A stretch of DNA of 64,000 nucleotides. Source: Escherichia phage WPEC4. The notes under the pieces were generated by a model that ran no database searches, was not told the origin of the DNA, and saw nothing but the letters and a program-made list of their open reading frames with translations. Location of the stretch: the sequence record PV682947.1; one strand, 5' to 3'. Positions 15,256 through 18,200 of the stretch are shown piece after piece (within the stretch, counting starts at the first letter, position 1; each line of letters opens with the position of its first letter). A program made the translations under genes and the position numbers.

Positions 15256-18200
15256 TGAGTAAGTTTACATGGGATATTGAAGCAAACGGATTGTTGAATA
15301 ATGACACTATCGATTATTTAGCTAGTCCTTATCGTCTCAAAGACACATTTCAAATGCACTGTATTGTCTTAGAGAACCATGAAACAGGAGAAATAGTAGC
15401 TTTCCACGATGGCCCTAAGTATATTTTTGATGGGCGTCCTTACGAAGAATCAGATGGTAAATACACGTATGTTCTTAAAGAATATGTGGTGCAAGATTAC
15501 ACACATTTTCAACTAAAAGATTTCCCAGATTTTATTAATCATGAAGGTTATTTTAAAGACAAGCCTGAATATTTGGTTGAAATGGCTGTGGCTCACAACG
15601 GTATCAACTATGACTGGTTGGCTACAAAACTGTTTTATGGATTAGATTACAGTGTTAAATATAACACGTGGGGCAAAAATAAGGTAAAACTTATTGACTC
15701 CCTGATTTTGAGTAAAGTGTTAAACCCAGATCGAAAGATTGAGGGCAAATCAGGACATAGCTTGGCAGCACTTTCTCGAAAGGCAGGTGGTGATGTAAAA
15801 ATAGATTTTCGTAAAGAAATTCCAGAAGAAGATCGCTTTAAGACTTTTGCTGCGGATATGCTTTATTACTGTATCTATGACAACAAAGCCAACACGAGTG
15901 TATATAATTACCTTATGGAAGAATGGGGTGATTATGATAAATGGGAAGGTCCGTTTGAACTTGAACAACGTGTAGCAGACATTATTACACGCCAGGAACA
16001 CCGTGGATTTGCTTTTAACATGAAGCAAGCAGAAGAGAACCTTGCTTTTTTGGATGCAGAAATGGAGCGTCTTCGTTTACTCGTTGAGCCTATTTTGCCA
16101 CCTAAACCAGCAACAAAAGGTTATCTTAAGGCTTTTATTCCACCTAAGTTGCAAATTAAAAAGAACTTAGAGCCAACTAACCATATGATCAATTTTGCTA
16201 AGAAACATGATGGTCATTTGGAAGAGAGGGATGGGGATTGGTGGTTAGTGATGTTGGGGAAAGAGTGGAAACTGCCAGTTGCAGCAGATGAGCCTTTGTG
16301 TGATCCTAATATCCCTGCAACATTGAACGATACTACCCATATTAAAAACTGGCTTGTAGGATTAGGTTGGGTACCGTCTGAATATAAAGATAAAGACTTG
16401 ACGCTTAAATCTGGCACAAAGATTAAAAAGAGTGAGGAAGAACTTCAGAAAGGTATTCGAGCTTACGTTGAGCAAACTCTATCTTCTAATTTTTGTCAGG
16501 ACCGTTGTGATCATCTGGAGTGCACACCGGAAACCTTGGAAAGGAAGATTCAAGAGCGTATAGCAAAAGGTAAAGGTCGCGGTCTTAAAGTATTGACTAA
16601 CCCATGTTTTACCAAAGGTCAGGAAAAAGAAATTTGTCCTAACCTGCAAGCTTTGGGTGAGAAATTTCCTTATGCTACACAGATTGTAGAATACTTAACG
16701 TATAAGCATCGTAGGAACTCTATTTTAGGTGGTGGTGCTGATTGGGAAGAAGATGAAGAAGATCAAGAATACGATAAAGGTTTCTTAGCCGCAGTAAGGG
16801 CGGATGGTCGTATTCCTACCCCAGCCGCTACATGTGATGCTGCAACCTCTCGTATGAAACATAGATCTGTAGCTAATATTCCTCGTGTCACATCTTTGTT
16901 TGGATGGGAGATGCGTAACTTGTTTGGTGTAGAGGTTCCTAAATACTTCCAGATCGGCTACGACTTCGACTCTTTGGAAGCAAAAATTGAATCGCATTAC
17001 TGTGTGCCGATGGATGCTCAAGCTTTGACTCGTAAAGGTTGGGTAGGATATCACGACCTGAAGGAAGGGGATGAGATTTTAGGGTACAATGCTGAAACAG
17101 GTCTGAAAGAATGGACTAAAGTAAAAGGTAAGGTCTTCTATAAAAATAGTAAGACGTTTGAGATTAAAGGGAAATCACACACTTACCGTGCAACAGCAGA
17201 TCACCGTTGGTATGTTAATACCCGTAGTAAAGGGAATACTTATGTGCCTAAAGTCAGAACAACTGCCGAGCTTTGCACAGGAGATAACATTATTTGTAAT
17301 GCTCCATTTAACATGGAACAAGATCAGGTAAATAGTTTAACTTCTGTTCAACAAGGTAAATGGGATGTTCCGTGGGTAGAACGTGTAGTCAATATGTCTC
17401 ATGCCGAGCGTGTAGCTTTCTTGGAAGGTTTCTTGATTGCAGATGGTTACTGGCACGAACATAAACAAAAACCTGTTTGGCGTTGGGCGCAGAACCCAGG
17501 TGAACTTTTTGAAGCAGCTTTAACTGCCTCGTACCTGGTGCATGGAGGCAATATCTCTGTAGCTTTCAATACAAAAGAGCAGAAAGTAAAAGTGGCAACA
17601 TTGACTAACCGCTCTCACATTCCTGTTCAAAGTTTGACTATTGAAGAGTGGGGTGTAGAGGATGTTTGGTGTCCACAAACAGAACTTGGTACGTGGGTCA
17701 TGCGTCAGAAAGACTGCATTACCATCACAGGAAACTGTTGGCGGTACGAGCCGGAGCCACACGAATATTGTAACGCTCTGTTGTTAGAGAAACCTAATGA
17801 TGTTCACACAATGATGGCAAAACGTATCACTGAAACTATTGGACGTAAATTTGAACGTAGTCCTGCTAAATCTGTTAAGTATGGTATTACCTATGGTGCA
17901 CAAGCCGACAAGGTTGCTAAAACAATTGGTAGCGACAAGTTTACAGGTCAATTGGTGTTCGATGCTTTCTGGGAAGCTGCATTCCCATTGGCGCGTCTTA
18001 AAGAACGTTTAAACGATTTCTGGGTTAAGACTGGTAAACAATATGTTTTGGGTATTGACGGTCGTAAGGTTCCTACTCGTTCTGCTCACGCGATTCTTAA
18101 CTCTCTGTTCCAAAGCGGTGGGGTTATCTGTGCTAAACGTGCAATGGTTATTTATGATGACATGATCGAAGAAGAAGGGCTAAGTGTTGACTTCTTTAAA

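Follow-up and report, generated by a model that had tools for sequence, protein, structure and literature searches.

Is the 245-residue insert in the DNA polymerase of Escherichia phage WPEC4 an intein, and, if so, does it splice and does it move between phages? We addressed this question in a stretch of 64,000 nucleotides (nt) of sequence record PV682947.1 (the window), in which the gene of a family-A polymerase carries the insert just after its motif A. We have little doubt that the insert is an intein that splices, and a functional, horizontally mobile intein in the polymerase is overall the best explanation of the locus, with a probability of roughly 0.9. The original prediction, made from the letters of the window, had already proposed an intein; this proposal was borne out by the exact presence or absence of the insert among relatives, by the residues Cys1, T-x-x-H, Asn and Cys+1, by profile matches, and by an existing mat_peptide label on the same element.

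The polymerase open reading frame (ORF) starts with a GTG that shares 1 nt with the stop of the methyltransferase gene lying upstream, and encodes 1110 amino acids (aa) in the order ...GYDFDSLEAKIESHY ^ CVPMDAQ...TADHRW...AFLEGFLIADGYW...DVWCPQTELGTWVMRQKDCITITGN ^ CWRYEPEPHEY...KSVKYGITYGAQ, the caret marking splice junctions here and below. The insert had been placed at 17001-17735, with a length of 245 aa, a Cys at its start, ITITGN at its end and Cys-Trp-Arg-Tyr after it, and all of these particulars are exact in the ORF translation; the TADH and AFLEGFLIADGYW motifs claimed for it are both present. The parts of the gene are the following, in positions of the window:

15255..18587, + strand: intein-containing family-A DNA polymerase precursor, ORF of 1110 aa (ORF list; Pfam DNA_pol_A, E 2e-11; PHROG 17 'DNA polymerase', E 4e-106)
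15255..17000, + strand: N-extein, 582 aa (exonuclease and N-terminal part of the polymerase), ending ...GYDFDSLEAKIESHY (T7 gp5 alignment; alignment of intein-free alleles)
16962-16964 and 16977-16979, + strand: motif A Asp570 and motif A Glu575 (DFDSLE corresponds to T7 D475-E480)
17001..17735, + strand: intein, 245 aa, precursor residues 583-827, 735 nt (exact insertion/deletion, AlphaFold model, fold matches, GenBank label on the same element)
17001..17003, + strand: Cys1 (TGT), block A nucleophile, in CVPxDxxALTxxGW (invariant in the family samples)
17193..17210, + strand: block B, Thr65-Ala-Asp-His68-Arg69-Trp70 (B:7, B:10, B:11, B:12; conserved; numbering as in AceL NrdHF H68/R69/M70)
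17358..17615, + strand: single LAGLIDADG-fold domain, intein residues ~120-205, helix-strand-strand-helix-strand-strand
17415..17447, + strand: lone LAGLIDADG motif AFLEGFLIADG (aligns with a LAGLIDADG helix of the TliVMA intein)
17442-17444, + strand: Asp148, putative metal-binding residue of the LAGLIDADG motif
17616..17735, + strand: C-terminal HINT part, blocks F and G, ...DVW-Cys224-PQTELGTWVMRQKDCITI-Thr243-Gly244-Asn245
17670..17672, + strand: Cys224, putatively position 4 of block F, where class 3 inteins have their branch point (invariant in the family samples)
17733-17735, + strand: Asn245 (AAC), last intein residue
17736..17738, + strand: Cys+1 (TGT), nucleophile of the splice junction and start of the C-extein (belongs to the polymerase itself, as intein-free alleles read HYCWRY)
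17736..18587, + strand: C-extein, 283 aa, with motif B RSPAKSVKYGITYG (17856-17897) and motif C (T7 gp5 alignment; Pfam DNA_pol_A match 845-1009)

Joining the flanks yields, as had been predicted, a T7 gp5-like motif A/B region: the insert-free product of 865 aa aligned with T7 DNA polymerase at E 1.3e-19, DFDSLE being the counterpart of motif A DASGLE and KSVKYGITYGA that of motif B KTFIYGFLYGA. Pfam DNA_pol_A matches were confined to the flanks of the insert, and the PHROG 17 match to the precursor runs to residue 585, the insert occupying residues 583-827. The insertion point falls at the boundary between T7 '..LAHF' and 'MARF..', 7 residues past the motif-A Glu. The insert was said to split motif A; in fact the site is not between the catalytic Asp and Glu, lying instead at the C-terminal edge of the motif, and what holds is that motif A is cut off from motifs B and C. 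A group I intron or a frameshifted gene was excluded, the insert being in frame, a multiple of three, and inside one ORF.

Comparison of the polymerase gene at the nucleotide level revealed 100% identity with Escherichia phages WPEC1/2/6 and 96.7-98.5% identity with many Phapecoctavirus genomes (Stephanstirmvirinae). The full-length query was matched in 33 records, while in Schickermooser, tuntematon, KKP 3954, ABPW7, ETEC-TG and BI-EHEC, among others, it was matched in two pieces adding up to 2598 nt, i.e., the gene minus exactly 735 nt. The intein-free alleles encode an unbroken polymerase of 865 aa (...IESHYCWRYEPEPHEY..., with HYCWRY at the junction), and their DNA reads ...GAATCACACTAC^TGTTGGCGG... 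at this site. Removal of the in-frame insertion thus leaves an intact host protein. A domain conserved in homologous polymerases, the possibility against which the original prediction had to be checked, is not what we see, as the insert is missing to the nucleotide from near-identical polymerase genes.

By tblastn, 34 phage records of Phapecoctavirus and Justusliebigvirus, including phi92, were found to contain these 245 aa, with identities of 90-100%. Two of these, PaulScherrer/Bas60 (MZ501100) and SD2 (PQ821640), carry the product name 'intein-containing DNA polymerase precursor', and in MZ501100 polymerase and intein each have a mat_peptide feature of their own. That of the intein is one codon off, at 2504-3238 (Val2..Cys+1) versus the canonical Cys1..Asn245 at 2501-3235 (coordinates of the compared stretch), an understandable shift, since a Cys flanks both ends. 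Most other records, RefSeq included, name the product plain 'DNA polymerase I' or 'hypothetical protein'. The paper on the BASEL collection states that inteins were identified by comparative annotation and says nothing further on them (PMC8594841); our literature search found no paper discussing the polymerase intein and none linking an intein to phi92. The polymerase intein itself is therefore not new, as it is already labelled in two sibling records.

These annotations bear on the view that the 245 aa form a lineage-specific accessory domain, kept unspliced in the mature polymerase. It would agree with the plain 'DNA polymerase I' given to the 1110-aa product in most GenBank/RefSeq records, and with the fact that no curated hidden Markov model (HMM) flags an intein at the curators' threshold. 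We consider it very improbable, because the insert lies between motifs A and B (palm/fingers) and is missing to the nucleotide in genes that are 97-98% identical, and because all intein catalytic residues occur at the right spacing together with a HINT fold. Moreover, the same module is found in unrelated proteins (a terminase P-loop and a small KFDVYP/SAYANGW protein), and relatives of the intein occupy the same site (..HY^T/C..) in other polymerases.

To which family does the insert belong? A single-sequence phmmer search of the insert against PDB gave marginal matches only (E 0.07-0.9). A word-indexed search identified nine metagenomic homologues, and a profile built on these gave 251 matches; an exhaustive phmmer search of 1.84 billion cluster representatives (clusters at 50% identity) gave 2300 at E<=1e-3 and 835 at E<=1e-10. 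The family profile reached solved inteins by sequence, namely NrdJ-1 (1.7e-5), AceL NrdHF (3.1e-5) and Spl DnaX (6.4e-5). A search with intein models had been proposed as a check, and its outcome was divided: the curated models were below threshold or silent, whereas the family profile matched the solved inteins NrdJ-1 and AceL NrdHF. A 40-aa C-terminal query and a C-terminal profile of 22 sequences matched no solved intein by sequence. The AlphaFold (AF2) model of the intein, built on a 118-sequence alignment, had a predicted local distance difference test score (pLDDT) of 90.8 and a predicted template modelling score (pTM) of 0.89, and displayed the HINT fold. With this model, Foldseek listed endonuclease-bearing VMA inteins first (TliVMA at E 1e-8, PI-SceI, PhoVMA) and then mini-inteins; the best structural match of the intein model was AceL NrdHF, a class 3 intein. 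By its sequence matches, the insert is a member of a very large phage and metagenome intein family missed by the curated models. For conservation, two samples were aligned to the window intein: 120 homologues from the profile search, most copies of which sit in one small phage protein, and 137 further ones from the more diverse phmmer search.

Does the intein move? Nucleotide identity between the window and PaulScherrer was 72% in the N-extein, 79% in the C-extein and 92% in the intein (98% at its centre), and the synonymous divergence (dS) was 0.45 in the intein against 1.62 in the C-extein. This contrast of dS across genera implies at least one transfer. Ten Phapecoctavirus alleles, five with and five without the intein, were compared by counting differences over 2575 shared extein positions, and the two kinds were interleaved in extein distance. 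The extein of intein-bearing EF1-1 differs at 33 positions from that of intein-free ABPW7 and at 43 from that of intein-free tuntematon, against 72-79 from other intein-bearing alleles; likewise, the extein of the window allele differs at 48-60 positions from the five intein-free alleles and at 85-99 from three intein-bearing ones. The inteins of the intein-bearing alleles differ by 1-13 nt in 735. In these sequences, we see the pattern of an intein whose movement, or loss, is independent of the gene that hosts it, and the patchy distribution combined with a synonymous divergence much below that of the exteins indicates recent horizontal spread. Such spread would take place at the DNA level among co-infecting Stephanstirmvirinae phages, followed by recombinational repair; its most likely driver would be the single LAGLIDADG domain, working either as a dimer or jointly with the HINT domain.

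At the junction itself, the window and intein-free Schickermooser show three synonymous differences within 8 nt (16990-17000, 17736-17745; TCG CAT TAC^..CGG versus TCA CAC TAC^..CGA), the next differences lying 46 nt upstream and 200 nt downstream of this cluster. The upstream TCG-CAT is present in 4/5 intein-bearing and 0/5 intein-free alleles, and TCA-CA(C/T) in 5/5 intein-free ones. These junction variants are hints of short co-conversion tracts or of target-site variation. A clean co-conversion or resistance signature was considered and dropped, as the association is partial, with 10C3 and PaulScherrer as exceptions.

Within the intein, identity between the window and PaulScherrer is graded, from ~98% in the centre (17205-17354) to 82-89% in 150-nt windows over both boundaries (16905-17204, 17655-17804), and dS is 0.29 in the central domain and 0.55 and 0.87 in the two HINT halves. 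This gradient suggests that mosaic recombination may have occurred inside the intein, rather than one clean transfer.

Between the HINT halves the model contains a helix (125-130), the LAGLIDADG helix (134-148) with Asp148-Gly149 at its end, two strands, a helix (168-180) and two further strands. This is the LAGLIDADG fold, in which the helix closes with an acidic residue and a Gly comes next. The insert had been called homing-endonuclease-containing, and this stands insofar as one LAGLIDADG domain is present; the monomeric endonucleases of canonical inteins have two motifs and domains (blocks C, D, E, H), and the second is missing here. Position 148 is Asp or Glu in 134/137 sequences of the phmmer sample, which also retain Gly149 (134/137) and Gln164 (133/137); we take D/E148 and Gln164 to correspond to Asp20 and Gln47 of I-CreI. 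One-domain inteins of 240-260 aa are the most common form (~75/116 in the profile sample, 94/134 in the phmmer sample), with two-domain forms (290-360 aa) and minis (~160 aa) a minority in both, although a bias to the one-domain form is built into both samples, the query or profile used to collect them being single-domain. The LAGLIDADG domains of the window and PaulScherrer are separated by 17 synonymous and 3 non-synonymous changes, a ratio of non-synonymous to synonymous divergence (dN/dS) of 0.04, compared with 0.023 for the whole intein and 0.06 for the C-extein. On this sequence measure, the domain is under strong purifying selection, constrained and not decaying.

As a single domain cannot make the canonical active site alone, a dimer is the obvious model. 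Homodimeric enzymes of the I-CreI type have pseudo-palindromic targets, and this was not found here: the best symmetry around the junction was 6/11, while 500 random positions of the same gene had a median of 6 and a 95th percentile of 8. The lack of a palindromic target would fit a different view, in which the LAGLIDADG domain is the dead half of a two-domain endonuclease, kept for folding, and the patchiness comes from ordinary recombination and precise losses. Of the two domains that the relatives in nepoznato, Pseudomonas KIL and Vibrio phages have, just one is left; the family-consensus Lys165 and His169 are replaced by Asn and Leu in the window copy; the best structural matches include WhiA, which is a LAGLIDADG protein but not a catalytic one; and domain-less minis (P0005, P0008, P0009 and the terminase intein of the window) keep all splicing residues. 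Against this view, the domain retains the acidic residue 148, Gly149 and Gln164 and has a dN/dS of 0.04, and the one-domain form outnumbers the two-domain form in the family samples, with their bias to the single domain. Many conserved sites are occupied (at least 4 in family-A polymerases, 3 adjacent ones in the small phage protein), which is hard to achieve without an active site-specific nuclease, and the intein is far less diverged than the exteins, within and between genera. We give the dead remnant somewhat less than an even chance; for a nuclease domain that is still active, we see the odds as about balanced. A limited search of an intein-endonuclease survey (10.1101/2025.01.02.630785) and a homing-endonuclease review found no description of in-frame single-domain LAGLIDADG inteins.

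How, then, would the intein splice? Conservation is given below as the profile sample followed by the phmmer sample. The junction residues are Cys1, Asn245 and Cys+1: Cys1, a candidate for the N-terminal Cys/Ser/Thr with which class 1 inteins form their linear (thio)ester, is present and invariant in the aligned sequences (117/117 and 137/137, i.e., 254/254 homologues), Asn245 is equally constant (120/120, 136/136), and the +1 residue is Ser, Cys or Thr (Ser in 114/120 of the profile sample; S48/C47/T41 in the phmmer sample). Block B contains the T-x-x-H motif as Thr65-Ala-Asp-His68, with Thr65 (B:7) in 120/120 and 136/137, His68 (B:10) in 120/120 and 137/137, Arg or Lys at position 69 (B:11) in 127/137, and Trp70 (B:12) in 118/120 and 136/137. 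At the C-terminal end, Cys224 (120/120, 136/136), Thr243 (G:5; 120/120, 135/136) and Gly244 (G:6; 120/120, 135/136) are nearly as constant or fully so. Gly244 sits where the penultimate His would be, a residue that is common in inteins and not obligatory. The Gly-Asn junction, which the original prediction had singled out as unusual, is indeed present, yet it is a constant of the family and no oddity of the window copy.

A solved intein offers an explanation for this end. AceL NrdHF has His68, Arg69, Cys124 and Thr144-Gly145-Asn146; its Arg69 hydrogen-bonds the C-terminal scissile carbonyl, R69A slows splicing, and G145H, which installs the 'normal' His, abolishes activity through a clash with Arg69 (PMC7891396). 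Because the window intein has His68-Arg69 together with Thr243-Gly244-Asn245, it would share this solution to Asn cyclisation, and by analogy it very likely uses Arg69 and a penultimate Gly in the manner of AceL NrdHF. A penultimate Gly is also known in mycobacteriophage class 1 inteins, and in Bethlehem RDF the G316H change leads to precursor accumulation (PMC5050341).

The other residue of interest is Cys224, which we infer to be block F position 4 (F:4) from spacing, motif likeness and predicted secondary structure. Its V-W-C-P motif parallels the class 1 V-Y-D-L motif, and in the model it lies 3 residues before a strand end that is followed by a 3-residue loop. C224...W232.M234...T243-G244-N245 is spaced as C320...H328.F330...T339-H340-N341 of MP-Be DnaB, and the 21-residue distance from Cys to Asn is that of Msm DnaB-1 (118/139) and Mle DnaB (124/145). 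Asp221, the sole alternative, was rejected as the canonical F:4 Asp, since position 221 varies in the family (D/E/N/P/S/A) while Cys224 is invariant. We take F:4 in Npu DnaE and gp41-1 to lie likewise 3 residues before the strand end.

We propose that translation of the polymerase gives a precursor of 1110 aa, with the insert placed after motif A and parting it from motifs B and C. The intein would fold into its HINT domain, excise itself and join Tyr582 to Cys828, giving an 865-aa polymerase as in the intein-free relatives. Cys1 would open the reaction by an N-S acyl shift, with His68 and Thr65 straining the scissile bond; Cys224, at the F:4 position held by Asp in standard inteins and between both junctions, would assist or would relay the thioester to Cys+1; Thr243 would keep His68 in place; and Asn245 would cyclise without a penultimate His, whose role Arg69 may take as in AceL NrdHF. 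The conservation of Cys1 in 254 homologues implies that it is used, and the equal conservation of Cys224, Trp70 and Thr243 implies that a class-3-type centre is functional as well. We therefore lean towards a formally class 1 intein that requires Cys1, in which class 1 initiation is assisted or relayed by Cys224, over a pure class 3 route.

The class 3 route has much in its favor. Its signature is the Trp-Cys-Thr (WCT) triplet, and in class 3 inteins the attack on the N-terminal junction comes from the Cys of block F and not from residue 1 (PMC2807308, PMC7664689, PMC3196547). Here Cys224 would attack the N-terminal scissile bond, the branched thioester would be passed to +1, and Cys1 would be dispensable or auxiliary. 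The full triplet of Trp B:12, Cys F:4 and Thr G:5 (W70, C224, T243) is essentially invariant, being present in at least 98% of homologues with F:4 assigned as above. MP-Be DnaB, Msm DnaB-1 and Mle DnaB, for which class 3 splicing is experimentally proven, have the same 21-residue Cys-to-Asn spacing; the intein matched best in structure is likewise proven to be class 3 and shares H68, R69 and T-G-N; and the Ser+1 that prevails in the profile sample, though not in the mixed phmmer sample, is typical of class 3. As to the N-terminal nucleophile, Tori et al. had already listed three WCT inteins beginning with Ser or Cys (PMC2807308), and later papers call this nucleophile 'not required' in class 3. 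Class 3 was, however, originally defined by a missing N-terminal nucleophile plus WCT, a definition that does not cover the family because Cys1 is invariant (254/254), and Hoffmann et al. expressly left Cys1 inteins out of their count of 1701 class 3 inteins. Furthermore, the Cys+1 of the window copy is a rarity among class 3 inteins (Bvi IcmO being the sole case known), Cys at F:4 also occurs in a polyphyletic set of class 1 inteins (PMC3196547), and WCT grafted on a class 1 intein gave no class 3 splicing (PMC7664689). In our estimate the class 3 route has appreciable chances, well below those of Cys1-initiated splicing.

Several observations weigh against a functional, mobile intein as described here. 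The insert scored 16.6 bits with Pfam Intein_splicing (E 0.007; cutoff 35.8) and 12.8 bits with Pfam LAGLIDADG_3 (E 0.15; cutoff 22.5), in both cases below the cutoff, and NCBIfam and PHROGs had no match to it. Our search found no paper with protein-level splicing of the polymerase intein. The placement of Cys224 at F:4 comes from spacing, motif and predicted secondary structure, not from superposition, the C-terminal blocks matching no solved intein. A lone LAGLIDADG domain cannot, as a monomer, build a two-domain active site, and the homing site has no palindromic symmetry above chance. Finally, the junction variants track the intein imperfectly, 10C3 and PaulScherrer carrying the 'minus-type' TCACAC.

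Other members of the family occupy further sites. Inteins at the same post-motif-A site of other polymerases read ..(A/G)HY^T(Y/W)(K/R)YDNG.. (P0124, P0131, P0134), those at motif B read ..AKTFIYA^TLYGAG.. and ..KNGFY^CLLFGGG.., and the family is also found at a TGRxxH^SPNxxxIP motif. In the same polymerase, motif B harbors a different intein of 324 aa, 32% identical, in 12 records (nepoznato, ukendt, nieznany, AV126 and phiWec187 among them). In nepoznato (stretch 2501-3472 of MN850571) it reads KSVKYG^C...TLTGN^CTYGAQ, with Ile replaced by Cys at +1, and contains an extra N-terminal LAGLIDADG domain (FLGWLLSDGYY..., ~80 residues) where the window intein has a short linker. The nepoznato allele, the sole one aligned, has an empty post-motif-A site (HYTWRY, Thr for Cys), and tblastn gave one intein match in each of the 12 records, with no intein copy seen at the post-motif-A site.

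Most profile matches (P0002-P0121; e.g., residues 27-269 of P0003) are inteins in a small conserved phage protein. This protein has 3 insertion points within five residues, KFDVYP^SAYANGW(AAK), FDVYPSAY^SNAWA and VWPSAYA^SGALVKC, with Ser+1 in all of them, and judging from these sequences it is a hotspot of several neighbouring homing sites.

The window itself encodes one more family member:

56002..56481, - strand: mini-intein of 160 aa, the second intein of the window, interrupting the Walker A P-loop of the terminase large subunit, ORF 54532..56607 (six-frame scan with the family HMM)

It reads ...MIYGGAAG^CVSAETEYLT...SMEHRF...KKYCFETPSSYIVFRRGDHCFVTGN^SGKSRLL, with the C-terminal end HCFVTGN, and its removal restores the Walker A motif GGAAGSGKS. 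Like the polymerase intein, it has Cys1, a block B His-Arg, a Cys 21 residues before the Asn, and Thr-Gly-Asn^Ser, and it lacks an endonuclease domain. The mini-intein is uninterrupted in 69/71 related records, and hence appears fixed; where annotated, these records call the gene product terminase large subunit or hypothetical protein. Pfam and NCBIfam were blind to the mini-intein, the Pfam Terminase_6N match beginning directly after it. A fixed nuclease-less intein beside a polymorphic one that bears a nuclease domain fits the classical homing cycle.

The terminase large-subunit gene of nepoznato (NC_052658, 3553-6597) was matched as two segments separated by an annotated HNH endonuclease gene; the gene that hosts the terminase mini-intein is therefore also the target of a mobile element of another kind.

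The window is collinear with WPEC1 (PV659873) around the polymerase gene and not further downstream (~45000-57000), while the spacing of 35,945 nt between polymerase and terminase in the window is that of WPEC2. The three WPEC records with a 100% identical polymerase gene differ in length (155-161 kb). An annotation of neighboring genes transferred from WPEC1, including an HNH gene, was dropped, as WPEC1 is not collinear away from the polymerase.

What would these results mean? As an intein in a phage replication gene, the element is an ordinary finding. Its family is more unusual if, as we propose with considerable reserve and regard as rather unlikely, it is mechanistically and architecturally distinct, uniting Cys1 with a class 3 centre (Trp-Cys-Thr, Arg at B:11, penultimate Gly) and a single-domain nuclease acting as a homodimer. 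In the literature we found no description of a family with Cys1, the class 3 triplet, an obligatory penultimate Gly and a one-domain LAGLIDADG. If this were true, the family would stand for a class-1-like state of the phage progenitor that Perler's group proposed as the origin of class 3 inteins, splicing would possibly proceed by a Cys1 -> Cys224 -> +1 thioester relay, and a single in-frame LAGLIDADG domain working as a homodimer of inteins would make it the smallest nuclease-bearing intein type. A family with Cys1 and the class 3 triplet would be a natural system for the evolution from class 1 to class 3 and for a two-cysteine thioester relay. Redox-conditional splicing is conceivable as well, since this replicative polymerase carries three active-site cysteines. 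Should the nuclease be active, the compact 245-aa intein with its one-domain LAGLIDADG would offer a new scaffold to those who engineer homing endonucleases and inteins. For annotation, ~34 phage records with the polymerase intein and at least 69 with the terminase mini-intein are concerned, mostly labelled plain 'DNA polymerase I' or 'terminase large subunit'; since Pfam, NCBIfam and PHROGs miss a family of thousands, intein surveys built on these models under-count phage inteins.

Among known systems, the closest are PaulScherrer (Bas60, MZ501100) and SD2 (PQ821640), which have the same element at the same site, with 97.6% aa and 92% nt identity. PaulScherrer differs in its genus, Justusliebigvirus rather than Phapecoctavirus, and its exteins are 72-79% identical; for the intein annotated in these two phages we found no published class, endonuclease or family analysis. 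AceL NrdHF (a split class 3 intein, PDB 6ZGQ, PMC7891396) shares His68, Arg69, the block F Cys and Thr-Gly-Asn, and likewise has neither 'Asn-cyclisation' histidine. In contrast to the window intein, it starts with Ala and thus has no N-terminal nucleophile, has Met at B:12 in place of Trp, is encoded by two genes without an endonuclease domain, and resides in ribonucleotide reductase; its class 3 mechanism is proven, while that of the window intein is a prediction. The WCT class 3 inteins (Bethlehem DnaB, Msm/Mch/Mle DnaB-1, Dra Snf2), for which a phage origin has been proposed, share Trp B:12, Cys F:4, Thr G:5 and the 21-residue spacing. They are without Cys/Ser/Thr1, mostly have a penultimate His, and are found mainly in helicase and terminase P-loops, whereas the window family combines an invariant Cys1 with an invariant penultimate Gly.

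Regarding the nuclease, canonical two-domain inteins (PI-SceI, TliVMA/PhoVMA, PI-PfuI, PI-PkoII) carry blocks C/D and E/H, are monomeric and measure 360-540 aa, while the window intein has one domain, apparently the second, in 245 aa in all. I-CreI, I-MsoI and I-CeuI (homodimeric) and I-DmoI / I-Tsp061I (monomeric) are free-standing, intron-encoded enzymes, not in-frame within a HINT domain, and I-CreI-type enzymes cut pseudo-palindromic sites, unlike the homing site of the window, which is not palindromic above chance. The 324-aa nepoznato-type intein belongs to the same family and gene, lies 50 residues downstream, and shares Cys1, TxxH-x-W, the block F VFC and TLTGN^C; it differs in having two LAGLIDADG domains and in being inserted between the Gly and the Ile (changed to Cys) of KYG^ITYG.

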